From the IMG/VR virus record IMGVR_UViG_3300029258_004075: DNA of 64,000 bases; one strand, written 5' to 3'. The notes beneath the pieces are model-generated. The model had not been told where the DNA came from and did not search any database. It saw only the letters and a program-made list of their open reading frames with translations. Positions 6,865-58,087 of this stretch are shown piece after piece; positions within the stretch are counted from its first letter, which is position 1, and every line of letters starts with the position of its first letter. A program made the position numbers and the translations under genes. This DNA comes from an uncultured virus (IMG/VR IMGVR_UViG_3300029258_004075). Lineage: Duplodnaviria > Heunggongvirae > Uroviricota > Caudoviricetes.

Positions 6865-7077
6865 ATGGGAAAAGTAGTTTATCCAAATAAGAAAACCTCC
6901 TCATCTCATAAGGTTAAGGTAATAGACCCAACCCCAATTTGGATTGGAACAACCAAAGACTCCAACATCAAACGGATGATGACAGCGGAAGAAGCGGAGC
7001 GTTGGGTGAAAGAGGACCCATACAATAGAAAATTAACTGCGTATACAATCGCAGGAAAACTACGAAAGGTGAATTAA
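6865..7077 (+). CDS. hypothetical protein
   Basis: AGGTGA RBS; KVIDPxP shared with 5700. Confidence 0.65.
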   Translation: MGKVVYPNKKTSSSHKVKVIDPTPIWIGTTKDSNIKRMMTAEEAERWVKEDPYNRKLTAYTIAGKLRKVN

Positions 7078-7512: not shown

Positions 7513-7516
7513 AAGA

Positions 7517-8293: not shown

Positions 8294-8371
8294 TCAATAA
8301 TCATTAACTTGTAAGGATTCAATGGTAATGGATTTGGACCAAGTACAACTAATCAAAAAGAGGCGTTAACA

Positions 8372-8650
8372 ATGAAAAGAAAAAAACTAAATCTAGACAG
8401 GAAAAAAGACTTCAAACAGTTCAAATTCAACATCGACAATGTTTCAAAAATCATCAATAACAAAAAATATCAACTTATGGGAACATATCCAGACAATGAT
8501 GAACTCGTCAAAGACCTCAAACGACTCCACAAAAAGTGGGGATTTGAACTCCGCACTGAAAAAGCAAGCAAAAATACTGTCAAAGTATGGTCTAGAAAAG
8601 TAAAAACCATCAGAAATATTAAAATGAACCATAACTTTAAATATCCCTAA
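8372..8650 (+). CDS. hypothetical basic protein
   Basis: ORF with GAGG RBS. Confidence 0.65.
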   Translation: MKRKKLNLDRKKDFKQFKFNIDNVSKIINNKKYQLMGTYPDNDELVKDLKRLHKKWGFELRTEKASKNTVKVWSRKVKTIRNIKMNHNFKYP

Positions 8651-8684
8651 AACATTTATCTATTAAAATTAGGAGAAATATAAT

Positions 8685-9182
8685 ATGCCGATAAAAAAGA
8701 CCCCAATTATTGACATCAATACAGGAAGAATCATAAAAGAATTAAAGAGAAGAGAACGGGTAAAACCTGAGAGAACTTCTACTTCAGAACTTTATGACAA
8801 AGGTTATTTAGGCTGTGGTGGTGGAAGAGTCGGTTATTATCGAAAAACATATAGAGAAATGGTTCGCTTATTTGGAAAACCAGATACCGGCAGCGGTGAT
8901 GGAAAAGTATCAACAAGTTGGCTTTTTGTTTTTCCAGGAGAAGAAGTAGACCCACCTGTTCTTTCTGTAGAAGGATATAAGCCTTGCCCACTCACAATAG
9001 AATTTTATGATTACAAACAAACACATTTATATTCTCCTGAATTACCCACAGTTGAAGAATTTAGATATGAGTATAGAGATGTCCCATTTAATTGGCATGT
9101 TGGTTCTAATGGAACATTCAATCAAGTACAGAGAGTCTTGCAAGACTGGAAAGGAATAACCATTAAAAAAGAGAGATTCTGA
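8685..9182 (+). CDS. N-tag family protein
   Basis: MPIKKTPIIDINTGRII. Confidence 0.8.
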   Translation: MPIKKTPIIDINTGRIIKELKRRERVKPERTSTSELYDKGYLGCGGGRVGYYRKTYREMVRLFGKPDTGSGDGKVSTSWLFVFPGEEVDPPVLSVEGYKPCPLTIEFYDYKQTHLYSPELPTVEEFRYEYRDVPFNWHVGSNGTFNQVQRVLQDWKGITIKKERF

Positions 9183-9185
9183 AAT

Positions 9186-9611
9186 ATGATAAAGAAAACA
9201 CCCATAATAGACATCAACGTTTTTGATTTCATAAATAGTCGCAAAAACGCTACATTCCGACAGAACATAGATAGAGATACAATGTCAGGGCATGGTTGCA
9301 AGCACATGTCGAAACCTAATCCCAATAAAGGAATAGTACTAGTAAGGGTAAATTGGAAAGACAGCGAAATCAGATTTATTAAGAAGATAAAATTATATCA
9401 ATACAATGATGCGTTCTTTATAGCAATAAAACATAAAGCAAGAAATCCATACTACAATGAATTTGTATTTGAGACATTCAAAGAAGCTCTTAACTACCTA
9501 TATGATTTGATGATAGAAAGAAAGGAATGGGAAGGCAATACAGAATCATTTGAAACAAGATTTACTGAACAAGGAAAGAAAAGAGCAGAGAGTGAAGGAT
9601 TTATTATATGA
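9186..9611 (+). CDS. N-tag family protein
   Basis: MIKKTPIIDINV. Confidence 0.8.
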   Translation: MIKKTPIIDINVFDFINSRKNATFRQNIDRDTMSGHGCKHMSKPNPNKGIVLVRVNWKDSEIRFIKKIKLYQYNDAFFIAIKHKARNPYYNEFVFETFKEALNYLYDLMIERKEWEGNTESFETRFTEQGKKRAESEGFII

Positions 9612-9898
9612 TTAAGAAAATACCCATAATAGATGTTAACATAAAACAATTCAAATTAAATAATCGACGCACATCAAATTGGGTACTAATTAAAGACGTA
9701 CCAGGACATAAGAAATGGATAAACCGTATAAGCAATAGAATCGTATTTATAAACAATGAAATGAATGAAAATACCTTTTGGTATATCTACACAGGGATAG
9801 CTGACGACAGAGGAGGAGAATTAGAAGATGTTGGGAGGACAAAAACAAAGAGAGAAGCAGAAAATGCTGCAAAAGCGCTAATGGAGGGATTTGAATAA
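9608..9898 (+). CDS. N-tag family protein
   Basis: MIKKIPIIDVNI. Confidence 0.8.
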   Translation: MIKKIPIIDVNIKQFKLNNRRTSNWVLIKDVPGHKKWINRISNRIVFINNEMNENTFWYIYTGIADDRGGELEDVGRTKTKREAENAAKALMEGFE

Positions 9899-24850: not shown

Positions 24851-24869
24851 TCATCTTTTTTTCTTTATC
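24851..24869 (+). terminator. archaeal-type oligo-T terminator
   Basis: TCATCTTTTTTTCTTT just after the stop at 24846. Confidence 0.45.
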
Positions 24870-24894
24870 TATTAAATAAACCAAAAATTTAATA
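24870..24894 (+). promoter_or_regulatory. TATTAAA-N11-TTTAATA promoter/operator
   Basis: Same palindrome and spacing at 33932 and 37614; BRE-TATA-like. Confidence 0.55.
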
Positions 24895-28752: not shown

Positions 28753-29057
28753 AAATATACTGGCTTATTAAGGGCAATCTGCGCCTGCGCTGTCTTGTCC
28801 TTTCTATTCCTGCGTTCCTTGCTTGGATACTTGCCATTCCTCTTGCTATGACAATGTATCTTCCAATGGTAGTAGCAGCAGGAGCACTTGTTGTCCTCGG
28901 CATCATAACAGAACTCGTTATATTTATCCAATTAGAACAAGACCAAAAATATCTTGTTCTTGCATTTGACGTAGATGATACATTTAGTGACATATTTGAC
29001 ATACAAAAGACAGATACACTTAATATGAAAAAAACTTGGAAAAAGGTGAAAAAATAA
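28707..29057 (+). CDS. 2-TM membrane protein, paralog of 28294
   Basis: Shared N- and C-terminal motifs; GGTGA RBS. Confidence 0.7.
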   Translation: MRKFEDLSKEEQQKLKIYWLIKGNLRLRCLVLSIPAFLAWILAIPLAMTMYLPMVVAAGALVVLGIITELVIFIQLEQDQKYLVLAFDVDDTFSDIFDIQKTDTLNMKKTWKKVKK

Positions 29058-29058
29058 T

Positions 29059-29613
29059 ATGGTAAGACCAATAGAAAGAGAAAAAAATCCGACTCATATG
29101 TTGGAAGACCGTTTAGCACAGAAGTTCGACGACCTTCAAATCGCTCGAGAGGAAGGAGCAGCCGGTCTATTTGACGAGATAGCCAAAAGCATTGAAGTAT
29201 TGCTACGAGCAGTCCCGACAGCATATAACGAACTCCAACAGCAGAAACAGGAACTTGACCAAGAAATAGAACAAGTGTTCTATCAAATACAACTAGACGC
29301 ACGGTCGGCGCAAGACAAAATATATCGTGACGCAATTATCAACAGAAAAACAGACCAAGCAGAATGGGAATACCGAGAAGTATATGAAGAAATCATCATT
29401 GACATCTTGCAAAAACACGGACTCATATCAATTCTTAGAAACAGTCGTTCACAACTATCAAACATGGAAGAGCAACAACATCAACCCAAGATGCAGGCTC
29501 TTCAACAAGAAGAAGAAGAAGAAGAGCCTGAACCCGAACCAGAACAACAAAAGAAACCACATCTTATTAGCAAAAAAGCGAAGAAAGGAAAGATGGGCAA
29601 ATTTAAAGTATAA
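29059..29613 (+). CDS. coiled-coil protein
   Basis: Q/E-rich helical sequence. Confidence 0.7.
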   Translation: MVRPIEREKNPTHMLEDRLAQKFDDLQIAREEGAAGLFDEIAKSIEVLLRAVPTAYNELQQQKQELDQEIEQVFYQIQLDARSAQDKIYRDAIINRKTDQAEWEYREVYEEIIIDILQKHGLISILRNSRSQLSNMEEQQHQPKMQALQQEEEEEEPEPEPEQQKKPHLISKKAKKGKMGKFKV

Positions 29614-29626
29614 ACTGTGATGCACA

Positions 29627-30514
29627 ATGACATCAAGACCACAGATTGAAGCACAAAACATCATACGCAGAATGCACGCTCAGGACATGGATTCTGGAGG
29701 TGTCTTTACTCAGGTGACCGGAGGACAAGGCACTGGTAAAACCAGCATCATGCTATCCTTTGTCAAATTTACAATGCAAAACTATCCTGAACAGAAAATA
29801 TTTTGGTCTGACTGTTACAAAGCGCCACTCCAATCTCTAAAAGCCGGTCTTGAAAACTGTCACTTTATGGTTAAGAAAGGAAGCGGTGTTACCTTCCATG
29901 ACCGAAACAATAAATTAGAAGAAGTGACAGAATACATCAAACCAACGTACTTTACCGTCGGAAAAAATGCAGTAGGAGAACCTGACTACTCGGATGTTTA
30001 CGAAAAAGCAAAAACAGGAAAAATTAATGTTGTATTTTTCGGCAACCGTCATAGATGGATGGACTTCATTGGATGGCTTCGTGATTGTGGTGAATGGGTC
30101 CATGTCTACATCGAAGAGTTTGCAGAGATAGCACCGACTAATCCTGGAGGTGAAATGTATCAAAAAATGCTCCAATTTGCCGATACACTTAAAGATGTGC
30201 GTAAGTGTATGATTAACGTATACACCAACACCCAAACGCCAGCGGAAGTTGATTGGCGTATTAGAAAGAAATACATGATAAGAATCTACTTGCCTGGTTC
30301 AAAGGTAGAAGGGCATGGTTATACTCGCGTCACTCAAAAAGCCGTGGATAATCTGCTCCGTCACCCAGAAGGAAACGAAGCGTATATTGACCATGCTGGA
30401 ACCTTCGGTAAGACACGCTTTACTGATATCTTTAATCCAGACCATAATCTCCATTTAGATGCCCGTATAACCAGTTTGCCGGAAGAGGAAGAAGATGGGA
30501 AGAATAGTTCCTAA
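29627..30514 (+). CDS. P-loop ATPase (Zot/A32/FtsK-like packaging or extrusion type)
   Basis: Walker A GGQGTGKTS; Walker B VYIEE; TQ...VDWRIRK. Confidence 0.6.
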   Translation: MTSRPQIEAQNIIRRMHAQDMDSGGVFTQVTGGQGTGKTSIMLSFVKFTMQNYPEQKIFWSDCYKAPLQSLKAGLENCHFMVKKGSGVTFHDRNNKLEEVTEYIKPTYFTVGKNAVGEPDYSDVYEKAKTGKINVVFFGNRHRWMDFIGWLRDCGEWVHVYIEEFAEIAPTNPGGEMYQKMLQFADTLKDVRKCMINVYTNTQTPAEVDWRIRKKYMIRIYLPGSKVEGHGYTRVTQKAVDNLLRHPEGNEAYIDHAGTFGKTRFTDIFNPDHNLHLDARITSLPEEEEDGKNSS

Positions 30515-30956
30515 GCAAAAACAAACCCGTCTTACATTCCTCGATACTATAGCATCACAGAAGGAATTGCTAAACCTTGTAGTTCGTAAAAAAGAGAGAA
30601 ATCGCGGACTCAACCGCAAAGAAGAAGAAGAGTTCCCTGAACTGGTTGCCCTTGCAACATTATCTCACGCATCAACACCATGCACTTTTGTTAACAATGA
30701 TGGGAGAGCAACAACATGGAACATTTACGAACTTGCTCTTCAAATAAAGAGCCTTCGCGGTCAACAAGTAAACCTTATAGATGGAACCACAAACCAAAAG
30801 TATACAGTATCTATGAGAGACCTTTGGGCATTCCTTGAGAGGGAACTTAAGCACATCTTTCCATATGCATTAGAAGAAGCAATACATATGAGCAAAGAAT
30901 TACCTGCCCGTCAAAAAGCAACAAGTTATACCTTCTCTTCAGACACAAAACTTTAA
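30495..30956 (+). CDS. hypothetical protein
   Basis: ORF with GAGG RBS. Confidence 0.7.
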   Translation: MGRIVPKQKQTRLTFLDTIASQKELLNLVVRKKERNRGLNRKEEEEFPELVALATLSHASTPCTFVNNDGRATTWNIYELALQIKSLRGQQVNLIDGTTNQKYTVSMRDLWAFLERELKHIFPYALEEAIHMSKELPARQKATSYTFSSDTKL

Positions 30957-30974
30957 TTTCTATTAATTTTTTCT

Positions 30975-30987
30975 AAACCTTTAAATA
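30975..30987 (+). promoter_or_regulatory. BRE/TATA-like promoter heading the TAGCATAA array (probably leaderless)
   Basis: AAACCTTTAAATA ~24 nt upstream of ATG 31011. Confidence 0.5.
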
Positions 30988-31010
30988 TTTCCTTTTACAT
31001 AACATAATAC

Positions 31011-31139
31011 ATGGTAAAAGAAAGGTTGAACCTTAATGAAGCGTTCGACGACCCAGAAACAATCAAACGCTCTTTTGACCTTTTCAAAAAAGCGGGAACT
31101 CTAAAACCAGAAGATTACTATCAGAGATTCACAATCTAG
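31011..31139 (+). CDS. small protein, 42 aa
   Basis: Translated by hand; stop is the TAG of TAGCATAA. Confidence 0.55.
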   Translation: MVKERLNLNEAFDDPETIKRSFDLFKKAGTLKPEDYYQRFTI

Positions 31140-31166
31140 CATAATTTGAAAAGGAGATAATTAGAA

Positions 31167-31358
31167 ATGACAAAAACAAAAAAATGGAAATTAGAAGCAA
31201 CTGATGATTGGAATTTTGGAAAACCTATGTATTTTTCAACTTTAAAAGAAGCAAAAAGTAGAGCAAGAGGTATAGATGAAAGGTTGAAACTAAAAAGATA
31301 CAAAGCAGGAGATTATGGAGATGCCAGAATAGGTATATTTATTAAAAGGATAGCATAA
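31167..31358 (+). CDS. cassette protein
   Basis: AGGAG RBS; ends ATA-GCA-TAA. Confidence 0.7.
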   Translation: MTKTKKWKLEATDDWNFGKPMYFSTLKEAKSRARGIDERLKLKRYKAGDYGDARIGIFIKRIA

Positions 31359-31371
31359 AAGAGGTATATAA

Positions 31372-31680
31372 ATGACAGTTACACCTGAAGAAGTAAAATC
31401 AAATTTGCAAAATCTAATTAAAGAGTATGTTAAAGAAATCGATGAAAAACTGAAGAAAAAGAAAACACATGATTATGGTGCTGATGGTTTTTTTATTGAA
31501 TTTAATAACAAAAGTCTTGACAGTCGAGTGGTTGACCTTATAAAAACCGAATATAAAAAAGCAGGTTGGGGTGAAGTTAGATATTCAAAGGGAAATAGAG
31601 GTTGGCCAACTGGATTTGTATTCAGGGAAAAACCATATTCAAAAGAAGTAAAAGAAATGCTCGATAAGAATAAGTTATAG
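31372..31680 (+). CDS. cassette protein
   Basis: GAGGT RBS; ends at the motif TAG. Confidence 0.7.
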   Translation: MTVTPEEVKSNLQNLIKEYVKEIDEKLKKKKTHDYGADGFFIEFNNKSLDSRVVDLIKTEYKKAGWGEVRYSKGNRGWPTGFVFREKPYSKEVKEMLDKNKL

Positions 31681-31707
31681 CATAAAATTGAAATGAGGTA
31701 GATAAAA

Positions 31708-31830
31708 ATGGTAAAACTCAGCAGAAGGGCATATAAAAATTATTGTATGAATTGTAAATACAAGCATACAGCACTTGGTGATGAACCTTGTTTATCTTGT
31801 GTACCTTCCAAATGGAAAAAATTGAAATGA
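31708..31830 (+). CDS. small CxxC/CxxC Zn-binding cassette protein
   Basis: CMNC...CLSC; GAGGT RBS. Confidence 0.6.
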   Translation: MVKLSRRAYKNYCMNCKYKHTALGDEPCLSCVPSKWKKLK

Positions 31831-31841
31831 TAGCATAAGAT

Positions 31842-31954
31842 ATCAATCGGGATAGAGGTATCTCTTCCTGCCACTCAAAAGGTTACTACTGTCGGAGTGG
31901 ATATATGATTAGGAAGGATAATCAGGTAGCTCCTGAACCTCCCCGACAATTGAT
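31842..31954. ncRNA. candidate multi-stem structured RNA
   Basis: Nested complementary arms (see findings). Confidence 0.4.
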
Positions 31955-32064
31955 TAAGTAGGTAGAATTGAAAGATGAATCTAGTTAAACTACATAACGT
32001 GTGGTTTCCACCAAAAAAGGAAGTTCGTTTTGAATGGAAATCACATCCTAAGGAGAAGTAGAGT

Positions 32065-32271
32065 ATGAGATTTTATGAAACAGTTGAGATTGATAAGGAT
32101 GCTGAGGATTTGATGGATTTAATCTTTAAAGAGAACCCTGGAATTGTCATTCATTGGATTCGTGAGAATACAGATAAAATTATTGAATGGAAGCAATGGA
32201 ATGAAAACCATATGAATGATTTTTTAAAGGAGATTCATAAAATTCGTGTTGGTATTGAAGAGGAGAAATGA
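32065..32271 (+). CDS. cassette protein
   Basis: ORF track. Confidence 0.65.
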   Translation: MRFYETVEIDKDAEDLMDLIFKENPGIVIHWIRENTDKIIEWKQWNENHMNDFLKEIHKIRVGIEEEK

Positions 32272-32272
32272 A

Positions 32273-32425
32273 ATGAATGTAAAGACAGTTTATGTATTTA
32301 AAAATGGTAATGTTGCTGTATTTAATGAAAAAGGTGAACAGATACCAGAACTACAAATTAATTTATTCTCTTGGATGAAAAAGAAGGGTTTTAATGTTAT
32401 TTGTAAAGAACTAAATCAAGAATAG
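32273..32425 (+). CDS. cassette protein, 50 aa
   Basis: AGGAG RBS; ends at the motif TAG. Confidence 0.6.
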   Translation: MNVKTVYVFKNGNVAVFNEKGEQIPELQINLFSWMKKKGFNVICKELNQE

Positions 32426-32525
32426 CATAAAGGAGAAATGAAAGCATGAATGAAAAAACAAAGTTAAATTTTCTGTTAGGCAGTTTATTGCTTTTAGGTA
32501 TAGGAATTGGTTTTATTCTTGGTGT

Positions 32526-32711
32526 GTGTTATTAATGGGTGGTATTGAGTATATGGCATCTTCAGCGATGCCTAAAAGAAAATGTGTGTTGTGCCATAAG
32601 AAGAAATATGCTGATAATTTTGTTTCTATTGGTGTTGAGATTCAAGGGATACAGAATTTTGATATTTGTAAGTCTTGTTTGAAACAGTTGAAGATAATGT
32701 TAGATAAATAG
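32526..32711 (+). CDS. small Zn-finger cassette protein
   Basis: CVLC...CKSC; ends at TAGCATAG; start uncertain. Confidence 0.6.
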   Translation: MLLMGGIEYMASSAMPKRKCVLCHKKKYADNFVSIGVEIQGIQNFDICKSCLKQLKIMLDK

Positions 32712-32725
32712 CATAGTGATGAAAG

Positions 32726-32875
32726 ATGATAATTAGGAAACATGCAGATATAGTAATTGATTTGGAAAACATTCCGGATTATGTATTGAGGCAACTTGAA
32801 AGAAAATTGAATGCTGTGATTAAATTGGATGACCATTTTAATAAATATTTGGTCCAGATAGAAACACACTATTAG
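32726..32875 (+). CDS. cassette protein, 49 aa
   Basis: Translated by hand; ends at the motif TAG. Confidence 0.55.
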   Translation: MIIRKHADIVIDLENIPDYVLRQLERKLNAVIKLDDHFNKYLVQIETHY

Positions 32876-32894
32876 CATAAAGGAAAATAAGAGT

Positions 32895-33383
32895 ATGATA
32901 GAAAATAAAAAATCAATGTATGGTTTGAGTCTTGTTGTTTTAATTGTTGCTGCTGTTTCTTATTCAATGGAAAGTGTTCAAGAAAAAAATGTTATTTTTC
33001 CTCAGCATTGGGTTGGAGTAGACGATTTAAATGAATTTAGTAATTTGACTTATTCAAAATACATATTAAGAAATCTGAAAGAGCCTTATAAAAACGAAGA
33101 ATATATTTTATTGCAGTCTGCAGGGAGTACTTCAATGGCTCCTGCATATGGTGGAAATTGTTCATATATTATTAAACAAGATGTAACAATCAAAGATATT
33201 AAAGTTGGTGATGTTGTCGCATATCACTCAAACGAAGGAAGTATTTTACATCGTGTTATTAAAAAATATGACACGCATTTGATTACTAAAGGGGATAACA
33301 ATGATTCTGATGATTTAAGCCTTTTTGGTTTTTCTGTGACTAATGAAAATATTATTGGTGTACTTGTGGGAGTGATATATTGA
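32895..33383 (+). CDS. signal peptidase I-like (S26, Sec11/SipW type)
   Basis: N-terminal TM; STSMAP; GDVV; ILHRV; TKGDNN..DD. Confidence 0.8.
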   Translation: MIENKKSMYGLSLVVLIVAAVSYSMESVQEKNVIFPQHWVGVDDLNEFSNLTYSKYILRNLKEPYKNEEYILLQSAGSTSMAPAYGGNCSYIIKQDVTIKDIKVGDVVAYHSNEGSILHRVIKKYDTHLITKGDNNDSDDLSLFGFSVTNENIIGVLVGVIY

Positions 33384-33479
33384 AAAAAACCACGTTGTTT
33401 CTGGTGTTCCGACTATTTGTGTTGGTGAGGGACGATTATATTCATAATGTTTATGTTTTAGCATAAAACATAAGGAGAA

Positions 33480-33656
33480 ATGAAAATGAATGATAAAGAG
33501 AAAGTTTATGAGTTTAGTATTCGTAAAACAAATATTTTGGTGACTTGCCCACATTGTAAAAAACAGCATCGTCTTGGTATTGCATTGTATGAAAAGGAGA
33601 AGGGTATTCATCGTGGTGGTAACCAAAAACCTTATGAGAAATTAGTTGAAAAATAG
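33480..33656 (+). CDS. cassette protein with CPHC
   Basis: AGGAG RBS; ends at the motif TAG. Confidence 0.6.
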   Translation: MKMNDKEKVYEFSIRKTNILVTCPHCKKQHRLGIALYEKEKGIHRGGNQKPYEKLVEK

Positions 33657-33673
33657 CATAAGAGGTAAGGTTT

Positions 33674-33838
33674 ATGTGTAAACATGATTTGAAATTATTA
33701 TATTCTGGTTTGATGGATTCAAATTCAAAAAATGGAGTATCATATAATTTTCCACCATTGTTCAAATGTGTGAAATGTCATAAAGTATTTAAATATAATT
33801 GTAAAAAGGAAAAATTAACAGAGGTAGTTATAGCATAA
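33674..33838 (+). CDS. small Cys-rich cassette protein
   Basis: MCKH...CVKC; ends ATA-GCA-TAA. Confidence 0.6.
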   Translation: MCKHDLKLLYSGLMDSNSKNGVSYNFPPLFKCVKCHKVFKYNCKKEKLTEVVIA

Positions 33839-33931
33839 AACATATGGAGCATAAAAGTTGTAAACATATATAAATAAATAAAAAATCAATATTAAATCTT
33901 TACCTTTTATTATAACTTAAACCAACTAAAC

Positions 33932-33956
33932 TATTAAAAATACCAAAAATTTAATA
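33932..33956 (+). promoter_or_regulatory. TATTAAA-N11-TTTAATA promoter/operator
   Basis: Second copy, upstream of the DUF932-like gene. Confidence 0.55.
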
Positions 33957-33992
33957 TACCACCTTTAATATATTGAATATTAGAGGCATATC

Positions 33993-35066
33993 ATGACAGG
34001 AAATGGTAGCGAGTTAGTAGAACTCGCAGAAAAACTCAAAAATCAGAGGCAGAATCGCTACGATGTAGTAGTACCAGGAAAGGACCTTCACGTTACATAC
34101 GACGTAGGAACCAAACAAATTTTTATGGAAGTCCCACAACCAGGAGACAAACCACCAAAGCAACACAATATAACTGATTGGGCACATCATCAAATAGCAG
34201 AGAAGACCGACATACCAATGCGTTACTATCGGAAAATGCAAGAAAAAGGCAAACTTGACCTTCTTGCAACCAACATCAATGAGTGGCTTCCTTCTAAGGA
34301 GAAGCGGTTAGTACGTGTCCTTAACGACAGCGTAAGAGCACTTCTATCCGACCGGTACAGATGCATTGACAATTATGATATTTTTTATGCGACCTTAGAC
34401 CAATTCAATAAAATACAAGAGCAAAAGGAATTCACCATAGACGTACAATCAGCCCGACTAACCGACACCAACATGTACATCAAGGCAACATCACCGCAAC
34501 TTGACGCAGAAATCAAGCATTACAAAGGACATGGCGAACCAGTACACGGTGGAGTTATTATCACTAACAGCGAAGTGGGCAACGGAGCATTCACCGTAAA
34601 ACCTTTTATCAATGTTCTCGTATGCTCTAATGGTCTTGTTTCAGACCAAATATTCAAGCGAGTACACATGGGACGTTCACATGACATTGGATATATTGAA
34701 TGGTCAGACAAAACTAAAGAACTCGAGGATACAGCACTCTGGTCAAAAATCAATGATATGATTTGGAACACATTCGACCTTAACATTTTCGCGAAGTGGA
34801 TAGACGAACTTAATGAAACAGCATCTACTGAAATCGAGAAACCAGAAGAGGCAATCGACAACGTGATTAAGAAATACGAAATTCCAAAATCACGTAAAGA
34901 ATCACTACTTAACCAATTCACCCGAGAAGGTAGTCCAACCCAATGGGGTTTATCAATGGCTATCACTCGGTGCGCTCAAGACGAAGAGAACTACAACGAA
35001 CAAGTAAAAATGGAAGAAATCGGAGCCAAACTACTCAAACCGGAAGCAACAATTCAGGAGGCCTAA
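33993..35066 (+). CDS. DUF932-like protein
   Basis: RALLSDRY; NSEVG...VCSNGL. Confidence 0.65.
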   Translation: MTGNGSELVELAEKLKNQRQNRYDVVVPGKDLHVTYDVGTKQIFMEVPQPGDKPPKQHNITDWAHHQIAEKTDIPMRYYRKMQEKGKLDLLATNINEWLPSKEKRLVRVLNDSVRALLSDRYRCIDNYDIFYATLDQFNKIQEQKEFTIDVQSARLTDTNMYIKATSPQLDAEIKHYKGHGEPVHGGVIITNSEVGNGAFTVKPFINVLVCSNGLVSDQIFKRVHMGRSHDIGYIEWSDKTKELEDTALWSKINDMIWNTFDLNIFAKWIDELNETASTEIEKPEEAIDNVIKKYEIPKSRKESLLNQFTREGSPTQWGLSMAITRCAQDEENYNEQVKMEEIGAKLLKPEATIQEA

Positions 35067-35168
35067 ATCAGAGTAGATTGTGGGTTGAAGGAGCGTTTTC
35101 AAAAAGGCTCACCACCTCACACCTCCTTTACCCACCTTCTACACCTTTTTACCTTTGAGGTGAATATA

Positions 35169-35324
35169 TTGAAAAATAAAAGCAACTATTATAAGAGACA
35201 TACAATGATTAGCGTTTCTCTCAAGAATCGAGACAGGCTTAGAAAACTTGGTACTTTCGGTGAATCTTATGATGATGTTCTAACAAGGATTATTGATTTA
35301 GTAGAAGAGAATCTTAAAGAATAG
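35169..35324 (+). CDS. small RHH/antitoxin-like DNA-binding protein
   Basis: ISVS...RLRKLG..GESYDDVLTRII; GAGGTGA RBS with TTG start. Confidence 0.6.
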   Translation: MKNKSNYYKRHTMISVSLKNRDRLRKLGTFGESYDDVLTRIIDLVEENLKE

Positions 35325-35336
35325 GAGAGATAAGAA

Positions 35337-36755
35337 ATGGCAAAAACATGGTTTAACGTAGACAAAGAAGGGCTACGAGCATTACAGGCAGGTAAATCAA
35401 AGACATTCATTATCAACGAGCTCACGCAAAATGCGTGGGATGAAGACATCACTGTATGCGACGTAAAAATAAAAATCAATAAAAATAAAAACGAGATTTG
35501 CGTACAAGTAACGGACGACAATCCAATCGGATTTCGTGATATAGGACACGCCTATACATTGTTCGCTGACACATATAAGCGAGAGGACCCGACGAAAAGA
35601 GGCAGATTTAATCTGGGCGAGAAACAAGTTCTTTCCGTCTGTAACCGAGCAGAAGTATCAACGACTAAAGGAACAGTCATTTTTAACGATGAGGGGAGAA
35701 AGCAATACAAACGCAAAAGAGAAAAGGGCAGTTGTATTGCCGTTTGGTTCAATGGAACACAAAAGGAAATGGAAGAACTAATCGACCATGCAAAGAAACT
35801 ATTAGTTCCTCCTCACATCCAGTACATCGTAAACGAAGAACACATCCCTTCACACCCAATACTTAAGTCCTTTAAAGTATCACTTGATACCCAGATACTA
35901 CGAGACGAGGCGATGGTGACAACATCCCGAATTACCCGTGTTGACTTGATAGAGACAGAAGGTAAATCATATATTTACGAGATGGGTATACCTATCGTTG
36001 AAACCGACTGTCAATGGTCGATTGATGTTCAGCAGAAAGTACCATTAGCCGTTGACCGAGAAACTATACAACCATATTACCTTAAGGACCTTTTCGCAGA
36101 AATCATTAATCACGCACATGAATTAATCACAGAAGAACATAGTTCCGACTTGTGGGTTAGAACTGGAATGAAAGATGAACGATGCAAAAAGGCAGCAATC
36201 AAACAAGTAATTGAGAAGCGATTCGGCGATAAATTTGTCAGTGCGAATCCATTTGACCCAAACGCAAACGATGATGCTCTCTCAAATGGATACAACGTTA
36301 TCCACGGAAGTGAAATGTCAAAGGAAGAATGGAAGAGAATTAAGGAACTTGGGCTTATTTCTTCTTCAACAGAAAAGTTTGGCTCTAAAGGAATACAAGG
36401 TGCAAAACCCATCACTCCAACTGAGGCGCAAGAGAACTACGCATACCTAGCGAGAAGGGTTGCAAAGGAGATGCTTGGGCTTGACATCATAGTTATGTTT
36501 GTAAACGAGAGAAGTCCTGTACGTGCCTGTTACAACGACACAATCAACCGACTTACCTTCAATATAGGACATCCAACAGTAGGACCAAACTTCTTTGATG
36601 AAATCACATGGGAGAACCTGCGTCTACTTATACATGAGTTAGGACACAGTAAAGGAAACCACACAGAAAAAGGATATCATTATTGCCTAACCGAACTCGG
36701 TGGAAAAATGATAATGAAAGCACTTAAAGACCCATCATTCTTTGAGGTGAACTAA
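35337..36755 (+). CDS. GHKL (HATPase_c) ATPase with C-terminal HExxH
   Basis: ELTQNAWD; DDNPIG; GRFNLGEK; LIHELGH. Confidence 0.7.
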   Translation: MAKTWFNVDKEGLRALQAGKSKTFIINELTQNAWDEDITVCDVKIKINKNKNEICVQVTDDNPIGFRDIGHAYTLFADTYKREDPTKRGRFNLGEKQVLSVCNRAEVSTTKGTVIFNDEGRKQYKRKREKGSCIAVWFNGTQKEMEELIDHAKKLLVPPHIQYIVNEEHIPSHPILKSFKVSLDTQILRDEAMVTTSRITRVDLIETEGKSYIYEMGIPIVETDCQWSIDVQQKVPLAVDRETIQPYYLKDLFAEIINHAHELITEEHSSDLWVRTGMKDERCKKAAIKQVIEKRFGDKFVSANPFDPNANDDALSNGYNVIHGSEMSKEEWKRIKELGLISSSTEKFGSKGIQGAKPITPTEAQENYAYLARRVAKEMLGLDIIVMFVNERSPVRACYNDTINRLTFNIGHPTVGPNFFDEITWENLRLLIHELGHSKGNHTEKGYHYCLTELGGKMIMKALKDPSFFEVN

Positions 36756-50933: not shown

Positions 50934-53051
50934 ATCACGAAACAGAGATACGTAGCACTTGCTTTACTCGTTTCCATGTGCTCTATTCTGTTTTTCGCTA
51001 CCTTTTTCAACTTGCAATCAGGTCTCTTTACATCCGAAAGCGAATTCTTTTTAATCGGTCCTGACTCTTACTATAATCTTCGTTTGTGCGAACAAACGAT
51101 GGAAACAGGAGTATTCCCATTCGTCGACCAAAACGACCCTTTACTTAATTACCCTTTAACAGACGACGCTGGAAGACCTCCTGTTTACACCATGGTAGCG
51201 GTTGGAGCAACAGCACTGGTACAGTCATGTACAGGGTTGGATACCTCGTCAGCCCTGGGGTGGTGTATGTTGTTCCTCCCTGCTATTTATGGAGTCCTCC
51301 TTGTTCTCCCAGTCTACTTCCTCGCTAAAGAGCTCTTTAATAAAAAAATTGCACTTATCTCTGCGTTTATATTACCTATCATTCCTTTACTTATCCTACC
51401 AGCCCATGGTTGCACTCTTGGTCTCTTTGACCACGACTCTTTTATCCTTCTCCTCACAATCACATTCCTTTACTTCCTTGTAAAAACATTTAAGCAACAC
51501 CCTAATCATAGAAAATATCACACAGCATTATCTGGAATCACGTTAGGTCTTCTCTACCTTACGTGGGTGTCAGGATACATATTCGGCTTTATCCTAATCA
51601 TCATTTCGTTCATCCTCTTTCTATTTTTCCTTATACGAGACGCAAATACAAGTTATGACCAGCGAACACTAACATACATCACCATCATCGGCTACACCAT
51701 ATACTATCCCTACGGAGTTGCTAGTTCTCAAGTGATAAATCATGCTATCCCTTTAATAGCAACAACGGCTATTATTCTCTTAACATTAGCACTCAAAATC
51801 CTTCCTATCAAAAAAATGACACAAATAACGTTAGCATTAGGTCTTTTAGTTTCATCTTCTCTTTTTATCTTTCTTTTCAAGCCATATCCTTTTAACGGTA
51901 TCATAAAAACACTTTCAACTGGTATATACGGTTCTTCCGTCTTTCAAACGATAGCAGAAGGACAAATCCTTTCCCTTTCAAGCATGATGCTATACCTTGG
52001 TCCTGTCCTTTACATTACAGCACTCATTGGTATTGTATTATATCTCCTTAACCTTTACCACGACGGCATTAAAACACATCACATCGTATTCTTAACATTC
52101 CTTGCATTCGTTTTCTGGACGACAACGCAAGCAGGTCGCTTCCTCAACGACCTTGTTCCTTACATTGCGTTATTTTCAGCATTTACACTTTTCTTTATCG
52201 GTCAAAAAGTCTTTCAAACACCTAACAAGAGAAAAATCAAACGATATGCTTTTATTTCCTTCGTCTTTATCCTAGTAGCATCAAATACCTTTTTAACAGT
52301 CCATGCCGCACTACCGTATAACATCACTCAAGAAAACTTTGGAACGCAAGGTCTTTGGAGTCTTTCTATGACCCAAGAACAGCATTGGACAGATGCCATG
52401 AATTACCTATCAAACCAAGATAACCATATCGAAGAACCAGAACAAAGACCTGGTGTAATATCTTGGTGGGATTATGGTTTCTTTATTATATCATTAGGTT
52501 CTCATCCTTCTGTAGCGGACAATTTCCAAAACGGAATTATCTCTTCAGCATCTTTCTTGACATCACAAAGCGATGAAGAAGCTTTAGCAATATTAACAGC
52601 AAGAATTACTCAGGAAGAAGAGCAGTCTATTGCTTCATACCAAGAAGCATTTGAGGACATTCCAAAAAGAATAGAAGAAACAACTCTAACACTAAAAGAA
52701 TATTATAAATCTACCTCCATCTTCTATGATAGACACATCAAGTACGCAATTGTAACAGAGCGAGACCTAAACGAAATATATCGTGTATTTCCAGCAATGT
52801 GCGATAAGCCACTTGAAACATTTATCCAAACCATCTATCAAGACACAAAAACCGGAACAAACTATACACTTTCACAACTTGAGAACATGACATATCAACA
52901 AAGATTACCACTTAATCTAAAAATGATAGAGCAGTATCAACCTGCGTATTACAATTCCACAGCATATAGAATCTATCATGATAAAAGTCCCTTATGGAAT
53001 CAAATATACAATAAAAATGGAATAGTGATTAGTGAAATCAGTGAAGAGTGA
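50934..53051 (+). CDS. aglB: oligosaccharyltransferase AglB/STT3 (first ATG 50976)
   Basis: DSYY; DHD; TIAE; WWDYG; multi-TM. Confidence 0.85.
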   Translation: MTKQRYVALALLVSMCSILFFATFFNLQSGLFTSESEFFLIGPDSYYNLRLCEQTMETGVFPFVDQNDPLLNYPLTDDAGRPPVYTMVAVGATALVQSCTGLDTSSALGWCMLFLPAIYGVLLVLPVYFLAKELFNKKIALISAFILPIIPLLILPAHGCTLGLFDHDSFILLLTITFLYFLVKTFKQHPNHRKYHTALSGITLGLLYLTWVSGYIFGFILIIISFILFLFFLIRDANTSYDQRTLTYITIIGYTIYYPYGVASSQVINHAIPLIATTAIILLTLALKILPIKKMTQITLALGLLVSSSLFIFLFKPYPFNGIIKTLSTGIYGSSVFQTIAEGQILSLSSMMLYLGPVLYITALIGIVLYLLNLYHDGIKTHHIVFLTFLAFVFWTTTQAGRFLNDLVPYIALFSAFTLFFIGQKVFQTPNKRKIKRYAFISFVFILVASNTFLTVHAALPYNITQENFGTQGLWSLSMTQEQHWTDAMNYLSNQDNHIEEPEQRPGVISWWDYGFFIISLGSHPSVADNFQNGIISSASFLTSQSDEEALAILTARITQEEEQSIASYQEAFEDIPKRIEETTLTLKEYYKSTSIFYDRHIKYAIVTERDLNEIYRVFPAMCDKPLETFIQTIYQDTKTGTNYTLSQLENMTYQQRLPLNLKMIEQYQPAYYNSTAYRIYHDKSPLWNQIYNKNGIVISEISEE

Positions 53052-53055
53052 TAAT

Positions 53056-53811
53056 ATGAAACACATCATAATAGGAACTGGAACAATAGGAAAGGCAACA
53101 GGTGAACTTCTCGAAGCACATAATCAGTCAGTTGCCTATAACGACAAGAATGCAGACCTAATGGTTAATTTGAAGGATAAAGGAAAGCACGTTGAAATGC
53201 ATGTCCGTAACTCTTACGACCTCTATTGGATATGCACAGCAGAATGGCACGTCGATGACGTACTTAACACCCTCAAGGATAAAACACGCAATGTTATTAT
53301 CCGAAGCACCATCAAACCACACGAATTTGATTTATATCAAAAGAAATATCCAAAACTTCGCCTTGCCCATATCCCTGAATTCCTTCGTCAGAAAACAGCC
53401 ATAGATGACATTTTCAAAGCACGGCACTTCGTTGTTGGTGTTGTAAACACTTCTTTGAAAGAAACACTTTCTTCTTTCTTTGACTCTCTTGGTCTTCGCT
53501 ATACAACTTGTTCCCCTCAAGAATCTTCTCTTATCAAACTCATTGCCAACAATTGGCTTGCCCTTCAAATTTCCTTTTGGAACGAAATGAAGAATATATG
53601 TGAATATTACGAATGCAATTCACAACTTGTTTCAAATACTGTAACAAAAGATTCTCGAATCTCCGAATACGGTTCAAATATGCTTGGTTCTCCGTTTTCA
53701 GGTTTTTGTTTCCCAAAGGATACAAAGTCACTTAAAAAAGTATTCAAGGAAGCAAACATTAATGAAAACATCATTACAGCACTTATAGAAACAAATGAAA
53801 ACATAGCGTGA
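53056..53811 (+). CDS. UDP-glucose/GDP-mannose dehydrogenase family (short)
   Basis: GTGTIG; RST; PEFLR; GFCFPKD. Confidence 0.85.
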   Translation: MKHIIIGTGTIGKATGELLEAHNQSVAYNDKNADLMVNLKDKGKHVEMHVRNSYDLYWICTAEWHVDDVLNTLKDKTRNVIIRSTIKPHEFDLYQKKYPKLRLAHIPEFLRQKTAIDDIFKARHFVVGVVNTSLKETLSSFFDSLGLRYTTCSPQESSLIKLIANNWLALQISFWNEMKNICEYYECNSQLVSNTVTKDSRISEYGSNMLGSPFSGFCFPKDTKSLKKVFKEANINENIITALIETNENIA

Positions 53812-53933
53812 TACCGTGGAGGAAAAAGAAATACAACAGATAATTAATGCGCTTGAGAAAATAAACGAAACACTTTCAAGTATAGATGACAGTTTAAGGA
53901 GAATAGCAAACTACAGAAAGAGAGGATGGTGAT

Positions 53934-54569
53934 ATCGTAGCAGAAATTAGAGAAATAGGAATAGAAAAGGAAATGTTCCTTGTAAAAGAAGAAACGTTAA
54001 AAGAACCAAAGAACTACGGTTTTCCTCGAGATGAATTCGAGTTCCTTGTAGAACTCCGTTCACTTCCTTCCGACCGTCTTTATCCTGTTTACACAACACT
54101 CCAAGCAGAAGAATTGCAATACTCATTAAGAGCAAACAAATTTGGAATGAAACTTGATGATGTGCCTACGAAATTCTACAACAAGAAATGGGTTGATGAC
54201 CTGTGGGAAAGACACAATCTTGACCGCTTCAAAGATTGCGATTATACCAAAAATGTATATCCTGAACTCAAAAATAAACAATCACATCATCTTGGTCGTT
54301 TGGACTTCTCGAAAGACCAATATAAACTTACAGCAGGAATACACGTTCACTTTAGCAGTCGAGATGCCGACACTGGAGAAGTAATTGAATTACCGGTGGA
54401 AAGAATCGTAAAAGAAATGGATTTCAAATTTTATGAAGAAATCAATGCATCAGGTCGTAATAGAGGAGAATGGGAACCAAAGATTCATGGCTTTGAGTAT
54501 CGTAGTCTTCCTTCTAACACAGATATATATAAAGTTCTTAAATGTGCATTCGAGGTGTTGAGAAAGTGA
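53934..54569 (+). CDS. COOH-NH2 ligase / amidoligase (GCS fold); start uncertain
   Basis: GIEKE upstream of ATG 53973; ELRS; GIHVHF; GFEYRSL. Confidence 0.55.
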   Translation: MVAEIREIGIEKEMFLVKEETLKEPKNYGFPRDEFEFLVELRSLPSDRLYPVYTTLQAEELQYSLRANKFGMKLDDVPTKFYNKKWVDDLWERHNLDRFKDCDYTKNVYPELKNKQSHHLGRLDFSKDQYKLTAGIHVHFSSRDADTGEVIELPVERIVKEMDFKFYEEINASGRNRGEWEPKIHGFEYRSLPSNTDIYKVLKCAFEVLRK

Positions 54570-54895
54570 TGAAGTGTGAAAAGAAAAACTGTATATACAA
54601 TCGCAATTCAACATGTATCAAGAGCTTACCTCAGTTCAAGGTAACGTCGGAATTGGTATTTACATGTGCAGACTTTTCTCCTCAAGAAACTAAAGAGAAA
54701 GGGGATACAATGAGTCTTCTATCTGGTGGAAAACAATCAGTATTCAAAGACATTTATTGGTTAATTCGACACGCCTTATCAAAGGATAAAACAACATGTC
54801 CACGCTGTGGAAACAAAGCATTCCAACACGGCTTTATCCCAAATGAACGATACTACTGCACAGAATGTAATCTATGGAATGATATAAATGAATAA
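54569..54895 (+). CDS. Cys-rich Zn-finger protein
   Basis: C..C..N...C; CPRCG...CTEC. Confidence 0.6.
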   Translation: MKCEKKNCIYNRNSTCIKSLPQFKVTSELVFTCADFSPQETKEKGDTMSLLSGGKQSVFKDIYWLIRHALSKDKTTCPRCGNKAFQHGFIPNERYYCTECNLWNDINE

Positions 54896-55142
54896 AAAAC
54901 AACAGAAGGAAATGATAGAGAATATCATTAAAGAACGAGAAATGTTGACCGAGCAGTTACAAGCAATAGCACACAAGATTGATAATACAAGACCTTGGAA
55001 AGTAGTGCTACGCACAGAACTTAATGTAGTGATATAGAATGCCTGTAATACGATGTCCTGATGGTAAACTTCGTGATTATGCAGAATATGAAGATATCAT
55101 AAAACCACTATGGAAAGAAAAAATGAGAAAAGGTGAACATAA

Positions 55143-55379
55143 ATGAAAGATTCAAAAAAAATTGCAATTCTATTTGCGGTATTAATGATAATCCCAATGA
55201 TATCCATTGGATTGCAAAATGGAAATACATACACAAAAAAAGAAAAAATAGAAGGTGTTGAAGTAGTCACAGAAGAACAAATCACAACATCTGATGTAAT
55301 ACAATCATATATTGTTTACATAATTGGTATCATATCAATCTATTTCTTTGTAAGAATATCTGAAAAGGAGAAAAAATGA
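55143..55379 (+). CDS. small membrane protein
   Basis: AGGTGA RBS; two hydrophobic segments. Confidence 0.65.
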   Translation: MKDSKKIAILFAVLMIIPMISIGLQNGNTYTKKEKIEGVEVVTEEQITTSDVIQSYIVYIIGIISIYFFVRISEKEKK

Positions 55380-56125
55380 ACAAACCACTTGTTTCAGTAG
55401 TGATACCAACACTACCTTCAAGAAAAAAACTACTTGAGCGTGCTATCAAATCTGTCAAGGCACAAACATATCAAAACATCGAAATCCTACCTATTACTGA
55501 AGGTAACAATGCTTGTGAAGCACGAAACATAGGCATATCAAAAGCAAAAGGAGAATTCATAGCATTCCTCGATGATGATGATACTTGGTTTCCTACAAAG
55601 ATTGAAAAACAGATAGATGAAATGATGAAACATCCTTGGACACCTCTTTGCATCACCTATTCCCATGACCTTCGATTCAACCATGACCGCATTAACAAAC
55701 CACCACGAGTTGTAACACATAAAGAACTCATTAAATCATTCAATCTCTCGTCAACATCATCCTATCTTGTCAGAAAATATGCTCTTGACATTACCAGAAA
55801 AATAGATGGATATTACTTCGATGAAACCCTGAAATCAGGTCAAGAATATGACCTTGCTATCCGAATCACAAAGAATGAGCATGATGTCATTACCATCGAA
55901 GAACCTCTCATCACCCAATACTCATCAGATTCTCAGATATCAGAGAACTGGTCCAGAAAAATCACTGGTATTATGCAACTCTACAAGAAACACCACCAAG
56001 AGTATTCCTTCATTGACCACATCAAAACCATTGGACTCCTTGCTCTCTTCGCTTCTGCATTCATACTTGGCAATCGTATCTATTCCCTAATTATCCCTAT
56101 CAAGGAGGTCTATGAGAATGTGTGA
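55376..56125 (+). CDS. glycosyltransferase family 2
   Basis: VSVVIPT; ARNIG; FLDDDD. Confidence 0.9.
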   Translation: MNKPLVSVVIPTLPSRKKLLERAIKSVKAQTYQNIEILPITEGNNACEARNIGISKAKGEFIAFLDDDDTWFPTKIEKQIDEMMKHPWTPLCITYSHDLRFNHDRINKPPRVVTHKELIKSFNLSSTSSYLVRKYALDITRKIDGYYFDETLKSGQEYDLAIRITKNEHDVITIEEPLITQYSSDSQISENWSRKITGIMQLYKKHHQEYSFIDHIKTIGLLALFASAFILGNRIYSLIIPIKEVYENV

Positions 56126-56846
56126 ACTCTACCTCCACATCGGACTCCATAAAACAGGAACGACGTTCCTTCAAGATTATATCTTTCCTAACTTGAAAGG
56201 TATTGAATATTACTACAAACCAACAAACGTAATAGGTAATCTTGACACTCTATCACTCACTATCAACGGTAAAACCCTTGTTTCTGATGAAGAAATATCG
56301 TTCTCAATGCCAGATAGAGACCATACCACACGTCTTGATTTCATCCAAGTATTACATAAGAACTTTCCAAACGCTAAAATAATTCTTGGTCTTCGTCAAT
56401 ATGAAAGATGGCTCAAGTCTTGTTATTCTCAATATATCAAAGCTGGAGGATACCTAAAATTCAATGACTACAAACAGAAATATCCTCATCTAAAACCATC
56501 GGAATACCGAAGAATCATCTACACACTCTGGGGTGAAGAAAATGTATTCGTGTATTGGCAAGAAAACCTTCGGAAAACCCCACAAATAATCCTCAAAGAA
56601 CTTTGTGACTTTATAGATGTAAAAGTACCAACATATCCAAAAACATCCTCAAATGTCTCTCTAAAAGGATGGAAACTTTCACTCCTTCGATATATCAACA
56701 TCTTACTTCGAGGTGAATTCCTCCGTCGAAAAATCGAATCACCATATTGGCTCATCACCTATATCCCACGTCACTTAAAAAAAGATACTCGTTCAGAACT
56801 TCGCAAACAAATGGATAAACGTCGGTTGGGAGGTCGTCACCATTAA
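56112..56846 (+). CDS. sulfotransferase
   Basis: HIGLHKTGTTFLQ (PAPS loop); R....L.S.Y. Confidence 0.8.
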   Translation: MRMCELYLHIGLHKTGTTFLQDYIFPNLKGIEYYYKPTNVIGNLDTLSLTINGKTLVSDEEISFSMPDRDHTTRLDFIQVLHKNFPNAKIILGLRQYERWLKSCYSQYIKAGGYLKFNDYKQKYPHLKPSEYRRIIYTLWGEENVFVYWQENLRKTPQIILKELCDFIDVKVPTYPKTSSNVSLKGWKLSLLRYINILLRGEFLRRKIESPYWLITYIPRHLKKDTRSELRKQMDKRRLGGRHH

Positions 56847-58070: not shown

Positions 58071-58087
58071 ATTATGAGGTTTTGATT

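Follow-up and report, generated by a model that had tools for sequence, protein, structure and literature searches.

In viruses, the functions that change fastest, those for interacting with the host and countering its defenses, are kept in rows of small accessory genes. Ways of swapping such genes without damage are known in detail only for a few bacterial systems, namely integrons and the promoter-early stem-loops (PeSLs) of T4-type phages, the latter reportedly also treated by Comeau and colleagues in 2014. Integrons are built from IntI, attI, Pc and attC, with attC marked by an inverse core and a folded bottom strand. For PeSLs, the relevant passages of Arbiol et al. (2010, PMC2839356) describe repeats that mediate modular gene shuffling. 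These repeats are short, reach from the stop codon of the preceding gene across the Shine-Dalgarno sequence to the next start codon, and lie in hyperplastic regions of small non-essential ORFans, where recombination between copies accounts for whole-gene gain, loss and replacement among close relatives (PMC2839356). In the haloarchaeal myovirus HGTV-1, a conserved motif precedes most open reading frames (ORFs) of one genome arm (Sencilo et al. 2013, via PMC3950731), and the remark in PMC3950731 proposes that it serves regulation and genome shuffling in a PeSL-like manner. Here we analyze a 64,000-nt stretch of the uncultured virus record IMGVR_UViG_3300029258_004075 (hereafter the window), which contains a ~3-kb AT-rich insert with about a dozen unrelated tiny genes linked by one 8-letter word, TAGCATAA.

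We read this block as a promoterless row of micro-gene cassettes in which TAGCATAA may act as a portable stop-and-join linker for whole-gene swaps, and we consider that this reading has an even chance of being correct. Set against the described systems, the row is best read as a putative minimal form of PeSL-type repeat-mediated shuffling. What is new relative to PeSLs and to the HGTV-1 motif is a core of 8 nt, free of promoter and hairpin, that donates a stop codon inside a single putative transcription unit. Beyond the HGTV-1 remark, full-text searches yielded no paper on such a linker in archaeal viruses, and a full-text search for TAGCATAA itself returned only primers and unrelated sequences. 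If the reading holds, this would be the smallest natural plug-in connector described, with eight bases that both stop translation and join genes, in a virus that is probably archaeal, and the mobile micro-genes of uncultured archaeal viruses could be sought simply by means of the word.

A row of unrelated small genes joined by one exact word

Exact TAGCATAA occurs nine times in the 64-kb window, on the + strand only and always within 31137-33838 (starts at 31137, 31351, 31678, 31831, 32423, 32873, 33459, 33654 and 33831), and nowhere else on either strand. The original prediction, made from the DNA letters alone, had given these nine positions and a chance expectation of about 0.1 copy. Both were reproduced, the expectation in the block being 0.085 under a first-order Markov model of 30957-33992, and the description as a whole was borne out on all countable points. 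When the whole window was shuffled, the mean rose to 2.59 copies, with none of 100 shuffles reaching nine. Across 2000 Markov simulations, no 8-mer with at least three different letters attained nine copies (maximum 8), and TAGCATAA is the most clustered 8-mer in the window. Near-copies are present as TAGCATAG at 32709 and GAGCATAA at 33847, both of which had been pointed out before, and as TAACATAA at 31000. One-mismatch forms in general are not enriched, with 3 of 42 +-strand matches inside the block against ~2 expected. The minus strand of the block has neither an exact nor a one-mismatch copy, and conservation around the word ends at about 10 nt.

The word sits at gene ends and is read in two frames, as had been claimed: 10 of the 14 small ORFs end at TAGCATAA or at the variant at 32709. 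Its TAG is the stop codon at six sites (31137, 31678, 32423, 32709, 32873 and 33654), GCA-TAA provides the stop at three (31351, 33459 and 33831), and at one (31831) a TGA lies immediately 5' of the word. Four ORF ends, at 32061, 32271, 32535 and 33383, are word-less. Judged by eye, eight of the nine exact copies have a Shine-Dalgarno-like GGAG, GAGG or AGGA 0-9 nt behind them; counted from the first base of the word, the next start codon comes after 20-30 nt. The ORFs of the block all run along the + strand, and most neighbors are 1-27 nt apart. They encode proteins of 28-162 aa that show no paralogy, the best all-against-all blastp E-value among the 14 being 0.034. The earlier statement that most copies are followed by a ribosome-binding site and a new, unrelated small ORF therefore agrees with our counts. 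Around the word itself, junction sub-families have 14-39 nt in common (D1, D4, D6, D8 and D10), three starts share GGAGAAATGAAA..ATGAATG, and several of the proteins are small Cys-rich zinc-ribbon-like peptides.

The block also differs from its surroundings in composition. Its GC content is 29.8% vs 36-41% around it (39.9% and 41.4% in the adjoining kilobases), with high GC skew, and TAG is the stop at 6 of 14 block ORF ends vs 9 of 107 backbone genes of at least 60 aa. The low GC and the frequent TAG stops give the block a foreign look relative to the backbone. Neither tRNAs nor Rfam families were found in it.

The original prediction had placed one promoter at the head of the block. What stands is a promoter-like element: the AT-rich spacer at 30957-31010 contains TTTAAATA at 30980-30987, which lies 24 nt before the ATG at 31011, and the one-mismatch word TAACATAA at 31000-31007, which ends 3 nt upstream of that first ATG. 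Promoter function at this position is predicted from sequence. The sigma-70-type match at the head scores only 9/12, and the block as a whole has 15 sigma-70-like sites vs 17.4 expected, which is no excess.

The locus is a variable spot in related contigs

Relatives of the window were found by a scan with the DUF932 gene that flanks the block, and 18 loci were searched by tblastn; the window's own contig is L002 in this set. Eight related contigs keep the order of a 295-aa gene, a 153-aa gene, a gap and the DUF932 gene. In these, the 153-aa homolog always directly follows the 295-aa homolog, and the DUF932 homologs beyond the gap are 54-78% identical. The gap itself varies widely, measuring ~0.1 kb in L001/L018, 0.8 kb in L003, 1.9 kb in L004, 3.7 kb in L005, 0.6 kb in L006, 0.6 kb in L007, 1.0 kb in L008 and 1.2 kb in L010, compared to 3.0 kb here. 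A 'tattaaaaa..ccaaaa..tttatata'-like word heads the gap in L003, L004, L008 and L010, and within our block the TATA-like family word is found only at the head and the tail. Because the gaps vary across relatives and a word resembling a B recognition element (BRE)/TATA box recurs at the gap heads, we conclude that hyperplasticity at this spot is a trait of the whole family and that a putative family-type promoter drives it.

The content of the block is not shared with these relatives. None of the 14 cassette ORFs gave a tblastn match in the 18 loci. Forward TAGCATAA is absent from the relatives' loci L001 and L003-L012 and from the whole 44.7-kb L001 record, and no other 8-mer reaches four or more copies in the relatives' gaps. 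Given this absence, and as the remaining 61 kb of the window also lack the word, TAGCATAA goes with the cassettes and not with the virus lineage. The row that it links is confined to this lineage and has an imported look. A lineage-wide regulatory word was rejected, as forward TAGCATAA has no occurrence outside the block in either the window or the L001 record.

Several other observations concern the same spot. A 26-nt word, CTATTAAAWAWACCAAAAATTTAATA, occurs twice in the window (24869-24894 and 33931-33956; 0 expected), the second time in the AT-rich spacer at 33839-33992 that follows the row, where TTTAATATA also lies ~22 nt before the ATG at 33993. Similar 'attaaaaacaccaaaa..tttatata' words stand at the gap heads of L003, L004, L008 and L010. 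The 26-nt word looks like a family-type archaeal BRE/TATA promoter, and modules might also be exchanged at this repeat. In the relatives, small genes are chained in another way, by GGAGGAnTAAA(A)ATG, with the Shine-Dalgarno sequence inside the end of the upstream gene (L004 8243-9965, L010 8839-9972 and L008 5591-6449), and two such genes are common to L004 and L010, where they stand between different neighbors. In L005, one 1103-aa ORF (6524-9835) fills the variable spot instead of micro-genes.

Single cassettes recur beside other neighbors

We aligned contigs from four public DNA runs (X1-X4, from three studies) to positions 29000-36000. The evidence consists of assembled contigs, with 30 letters available for each continuation and nine break places listed. 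The main contigs of X1 and X2 are identical to the window across 29000-32347 and 32895-36000, and in all four runs there are contigs that match only parts of the block. Such a comparison had been proposed in the original prediction as a check, and it came out in its favor: single cassettes recur in the four runs, with likeness stopping at or beside the word. One joint, present in all four runs, skips 1126 nt, leading from the final base of copy 1 (31144) to a point one base short of the start codon of a 50-aa gene (32271); the DNA before 31104 is unlike the window. Elsewhere, matches end behind 31158 and behind 32431, the latter one base past copy 5, or begin exactly where copy 5 does (32423; X3 and X4 only) and at 33456, three bases upstream of copy 7. 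Another contig matches up to 32701 and continues with exact TAGCATAA where the window has TAGCATAG, followed by unlike DNA. None of the words taken from three of these unlike continuations occurs in the window. In total, 6 of the 9 listed break places fall within 0-14 nt of the word, whereas such zones make up ~13% of the block. Among the contig matches listed, there was no record of joining back, the trace that would come from mini-circles of the kind formed between adjacent PeSL repeats.

Protein collections add a second line of evidence. Clustering at 90% groups the 50-aa cassette with its family, seven members in all, whose contigs measure 1-133 kb; they end in ..NQE (3/7), ..NQK (1/7) or ..NQKIA (3/7). 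The extra Ile-Ala is the coding of ATA GCA TAA, so the same gene appears to run into the word in the other frame; judged from the proteins, ATAGCATAA, read in that frame, would give ..NQKIA. One cassette family would then end at the word in two frames in different contigs, in keeping with the earlier inference that the word is a nucleic-acid signal and not codon bias. The breaks within the block and the contig depth in X3 and X4 hint at a mixture of strains, with depth too weak to carry the claim. The flank proteins of strain variants are 98-99% identical on a 4,957-nt contig, which is no proof of re-ordering.

Likeness to integrons and to PeSLs

The block had been called an integron-like cassette array, and part of that description stands. 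Much as in integrons, with their one promoter at the head, a promoter-like element here precedes co-oriented, closely packed, unrelated and putatively promoterless small cassettes, a short core recurs at the junctions and often overlaps the stop codon, and array content differs among close relatives. What does not stand is the machinery. A Pfam scan of 126 window ORFs found no integrase, recombinase or transposase families, matching the earlier remark that no integrase is visible in the window. No attC-like hairpin was found at ten sites when 98-nt stretches were folded as DNA (minimum free energies of -1.2 to -10 kcal/mol; z +1.6 to -2.0, mean about -0.3), and only copy 7 lies in a 10-bp perfect hairpin. 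The cassettes are also far smaller than those of integrons, and the carrier is virus-like. We therefore rejected an integron in the strict sense, there being no recombinase in the window, no inverse core and no attC-like fold. The site-specific gene capture that had been proposed as the mechanism found no support either, since these same features are lacking and some breaks lie off the word.

The likeness to PeSLs is closer. Both are short repeats that span an upstream stop and lead to a Shine-Dalgarno sequence and a start, both lie among small ORFan genes in a region of variable content, and for both, recombination between copies would account for whole-gene changes among close relatives. Here, the gap is variable in the eight related contigs and most listed breaks lie at most 14 nt from the word. 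There are also differences. In a PeSL, a strong sigma-70-like promoter is combined with a terminator in stem-loop form, which makes every ORF a transcription unit of its own (according to the same passages of PMC2839356). TAGCATAA, in contrast, is a core of 8 nt within a single putative transcription unit, with no promoter excess and no stem-loop, supplies the stop in two frames and occurs in an element whose host is probably archaeal. A promoter of the PeSL type was not found at any repeat, as the word is not TATA-like and lies at no fixed distance from the start (20-30 nt), with a Shine-Dalgarno sequence in between. A strict PeSL was rejected on the same grounds, namely no promoter excess and no stem-loop at the word. 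The HGTV-1 motif, as described in PMC3950731, has a TATA-box-like part and an inverted repeat, and TAGCATAA has neither.

A proposed stop-and-join linker and its rivals

Under the linker reading, the block at 31011-33838 would most likely be transcribed as a single unit from the family-type promoter-like element at its head. A cassette would extend from the ribosome-binding site and start codon through to TAGCATAA, and the word would close the frame in two of three frames (TAG or ..GCA TAA) and position the next ribosome-binding site. Breakage and rejoining, annealing or template switching at or beside the word would then give products that are in register. In this manner whole genes could be gained, lost and re-ordered without fusion or cutting, and selection would retain the products; such swaps would be viable because the entire cassette pool ends with the same word. 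The agents that we infer would be general or virus-encoded recombination functions and not a dedicated integrase; the genes of the recombination type encoded in the window speak for this. Shared junction stretches of 20-55 nt around the word would probably carry most exchanges, with the 8-mer as their conserved core.

A number of points weigh against this reading. Eight bases fall short of what homologous recombination or annealing systems are known to require, and nine exact copies in unrelated flanks fit sequence-specific recognition by a protein or RNA better than passive homology. Among the break places, one at 31104 lies 33 nt before copy 1, another at 32271 is at a word-less junction, and the loose end at 33931 coincides only with the promoter word that the window itself repeats; the list leaves aside 40 additional loose ends. 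Variants with replaced gene ends (tails in P0014 and P0018, heads in P0022/P0023) imply that exchange also takes place a few codons inside genes. As the genome extends beyond the window, a second array in the same genome could supply some of the contigs with alternative junctions, and re-ordering is suggested by contig junctions and protein variants, not nucleotide by nucleotide on a second array. Being too few for known homology routes and too exact for drift, the eight bases keep two rivals alive, one with an RNA reader and one with a recombinase, and raise the question of whether they are kept exact by recombination itself or by a reader of RNA or DNA.

The first of these rivals takes up the RNA processing site that the original prediction had offered as an alternative. 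It holds that the word is an RNA-level signal on a polycistronic transcript, an endoribonuclease cleavage site or the site of a translational regulator before each ribosome-binding site, and that it co-regulates a class of micro-genes, shuffling being a by-product of its conservation. T4 RegB or RegA acting on early mRNAs would be an analogy. All copies are on the coding strand, between a stop and a Shine-Dalgarno sequence and at the same 20-30 nt before the next start; the word is exact although the frame across it changes, and no DNA-level symmetry or hairpin goes with it. All of this would suit an RNA signal. Such a signal acting only on the gene downstream, however, need not overlap the preceding stop, yet the overlap is seen at 9 of 10 sites and a TGA abuts the word at the tenth. 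The absence of the word from the other 61 kb and from the related 44.7-kb record leaves no virus-wide regulon, and four junctions of the same row work without it. We consider this explanation rather unlikely, if a serious contender.

Less probable still, and in our view improbable, is a dedicated system in which the word is the crossover core of site-specific cassette capture and the recombinase comes from beyond the window, be it the rest of the genome, the host or a helper element. Equally improbable is its wider form, in which TAGCATAA would be the recognition or crossover core of a new gene-capture system of archaeal viruses and mobile elements of one host group. If true, this would be an analog of integrons without the attC hairpin, with a dedicated enzyme inserting, excising and re-ordering cassettes at the word, and it would explain an exact 8-mer in unrelated contexts. 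The core is exact at nine junctions, near-copies flank the row, TAACATAA (31000) at one end and GAGCATAA (33847) at the other, breaks fall at the word edges 31144, 32423 and 32431, and the cassettes are promoterless and co-oriented behind one promoter-like head. Yet the 126 window ORFs include no member of the integrase, serine recombinase, transposase or HUH families, and a PDB sequence search with five large ORFs that lack annotation gave no related solved structure. The word is not palindromic and has neither flanking inverted binding sites nor an inverse core in the cassettes, an attC-like fold is absent, the one-mismatch forms are not enriched (3/42), and some breaks are away from the word. 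A tandemly duplicated gene family, with interiors diverged and ends and translation-start regions still alike, would account for the 14-39 nt shared within junction sub-families, for the three starts with GGAGAAATGAAA..ATGAATG and for the several small, Cys-rich, zinc-ribbon-like proteins. No two of the 14 proteins are alike, though, their lengths span 28-162 aa, and the row includes a hydrophobic peptide of 29 aa, a signal peptidase I of archaeal type and a slot that is non-coding, while single cassettes occur elsewhere with other neighbors. We disfavor this origin, given the lack of detectable similarity among the proteins, and assign it next to no weight. What lies beyond the linker, RNA-reader and recombinase readings falls to mixtures and unknowns.

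Searches for a second array

A blastn search of 30500-34500 in a phage collection gave no match. Likewise, viral_contigs had no match to the 102-aa cassette, to an alignment of the 68-aa cassette family or to a 19-nt junction pattern. The pattern TAGCATAA-N150-180-TAGCATAA-N150-180-TAGCATAA occurs in 99 stretches of viral_contigs and, with R after the word, in 64 of genome_contigs. These triple-word stretches were screened by spacing, likeness between segments and open frames, and 14 were inspected in context. No micro-gene array was found among them, the pattern covering spacings of N150-180 only; all 14 inspected loci were tandem DNA repeats, repeated protein domains on the other strand or non-coding repeats.

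Many unrelated contigs of phages, giant viruses and bacteria (L020-L181) also repeat TAGCATAA or its complement TTATGCTA with a fixed period, between 30 and 190 nt, where the copies belong to repeated protein domains and to non-coding tandem repeats. One type, represented by L024, is a conserved four-copy non-coding repeat found in many viral contigs of 31% GC. These periodic copies are false positives for searches keyed on TAGCATAA alone.

Features of the block and its flanks

All features described here are on the + strand. The last backbone gene before the variable spot, at 30495-30956, encodes a conserved protein of 153 aa with tblastn matches in the relatives and strain variants that are 92-99% identical. 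The row opens with cassette ORF 1 (31011-31139, 42 aa), whose stop is the TAG of copy 1 (31137-31144) and whose exact protein is present in a public collection. Positions 31104-31158, comprising the last 33 nt of this ORF, the word and 14 nt more, recur in other contigs with unlike DNA on either side. ORF 2 (31167-31358, 63 aa) ends in ..ATA GCA TAA within copy 2 (31351-31358). ORF 3 (31372-31680, 102 aa), of which variant P0012 is 96% identical, takes its stop from the TAG of copy 3 (31678-31685). ORF 4 (31708-31830, 40 aa) has two CxxC pairs and a TGA that abuts copy 4 (31831-31838); its variant P0014 has another C-terminal tail.

Copy 4 is followed by a GC-richer slot of ~135 nt that lacks an ORF (31839-31974) and is a candidate structured RNA. 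The stretch 31831-31980 folds as RNA into a multi-stem structure of -41.6 kcal/mol (z -2.38), with 4 of 200 shuffles as good, and the slot has no Rfam match. A doubtful 28-aa ORF at 31975-32061, absent from the protein collection, precedes the 68-aa cassette (32065-32271). This cassette, which has four variants of 81-94% identity including P0018 with its replaced tail, ends at a TGA that a single nucleotide separates from the following ATG, and the word is missing at this junction. The 50-aa cassette at 32273-32425 stops at the TAG of copy 5 (32423-32430), where loose ends start at 32423 and behind 32431. The next cassette (32446-32535) encodes a hydrophobic peptide of 29 aa, also with an exact protein in the collection, and closes on a word-less TAA.

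A 52-aa cassette ORF with two CxxC pairs, counted from the ATG at 32553 (32553-32711), uses the TAG of the one-mismatch word TAGCATAG (32709-32716), at whose place another contig has exact TAGCATAA. Its start is uncertain because neither start tried is in the collection. The 49-aa cassette that follows (32726-32875) stops at the TAG of copy 6 (32873-32880). The largest member of the row (32895-33383, 162 aa) is an archaeal-type signal peptidase I (NCBIfam TIGR02228, E 2.9e-14, 53.2 bits vs a cut-off of 51.85). Its TGA lies 76 nt before copy 7, and its variants P0022 and P0023 have a different N-terminus. Between the two, 33380-33466 is either a spacer or a 28-aa ORF starting with TTG and ending ..TTA GCA TAA in copy 7, and it is doubtful as a gene because it is absent from the collection. 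Copy 7 itself (33459-33466) is at the center of a perfect 10+10-nt inverted repeat and has a loose end 3 nt upstream.

The row closes with two cassettes. The first (33480-33656, 58 aa, or 56 aa from 33486) has one CxxC and stops at the TAG of copy 8 (33654-33661), and the last (33674-33838, 54 aa) is Cys-rich and ends in ..ATA GCA TAA within copy 9 (33831-33838). Copy 9 is the end of the array, with GAGCATAA next to it at 33847-33854. The conserved right-flank gene, at 33993-35066, encodes a DUF932 protein of 357 aa (Pfam PF06067, phrog_1362).

Carrier element and probable host

The carrier is an uncultured virus-like element and probably archaeal. Tentative pointers to archaea are the AglB/STT3 and RFC small-subunit matches, the ERCC4-HhH nuclease, the weak PriL-like match, the signal peptidase I and the BRE/TATA-like family words. 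Its relative L001 is filed as a viral contig; in the window itself, family searches recognized no capsid or terminase gene, and Borg-like tandem repeats are absent. The genome must extend past the window, since proteins identical to those of the window are encoded on contigs as long as 133 kb. All window genes are on the + strand, and those of the recombination type comprise a 5'-3' exonuclease, RusA, an ERCC4-HhH nuclease and a weak match to an AAA_24/Sak4-like ATPase; there is also a weak match to a PriL-like protein. Look-alikes in the Atlas, which are leads only, are archaeal for AglB and mostly from DPANN archaea for the signal peptidase. As to whether the word is a gene-end signal of the host, two DPANN genomes contain 39 and 54 copies of TAGCATAA per 0.7 and 0.9 Mb, respectively, vs 18 and 14 for the reversed control. 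A pair pattern of the word gave 21 matches, in 20 of 401 genomes of the DPANN phylum, vs 13 control matches, and no arrays. We regard these counts as close to the control and near chance, in a test that is weak.

A glycan cluster occupies 50976-62976. It encodes an archaeal AglB/STT3 oligosaccharyltransferase (TIGR04154, E 1.3e-58, below the cut-off), a UDP-glucose dehydrogenase, a GT2 glycosyltransferase and a sulfotransferase, together with a D-glucuronyl C5-epimerase-like protein (E 6.8e-19), a methyltransferase, a kinase-like protein, a HAD phosphatase and a GT1 glycosyltransferase. This content suggests that the element makes a sulfated, epimerized uronic-acid glycan. At the end of the window, by which it is truncated, lies a gene for the small subunit of the RFC clamp loader (63275-64000, E 4.2e-49), which is split by an intein just after the Walker region.

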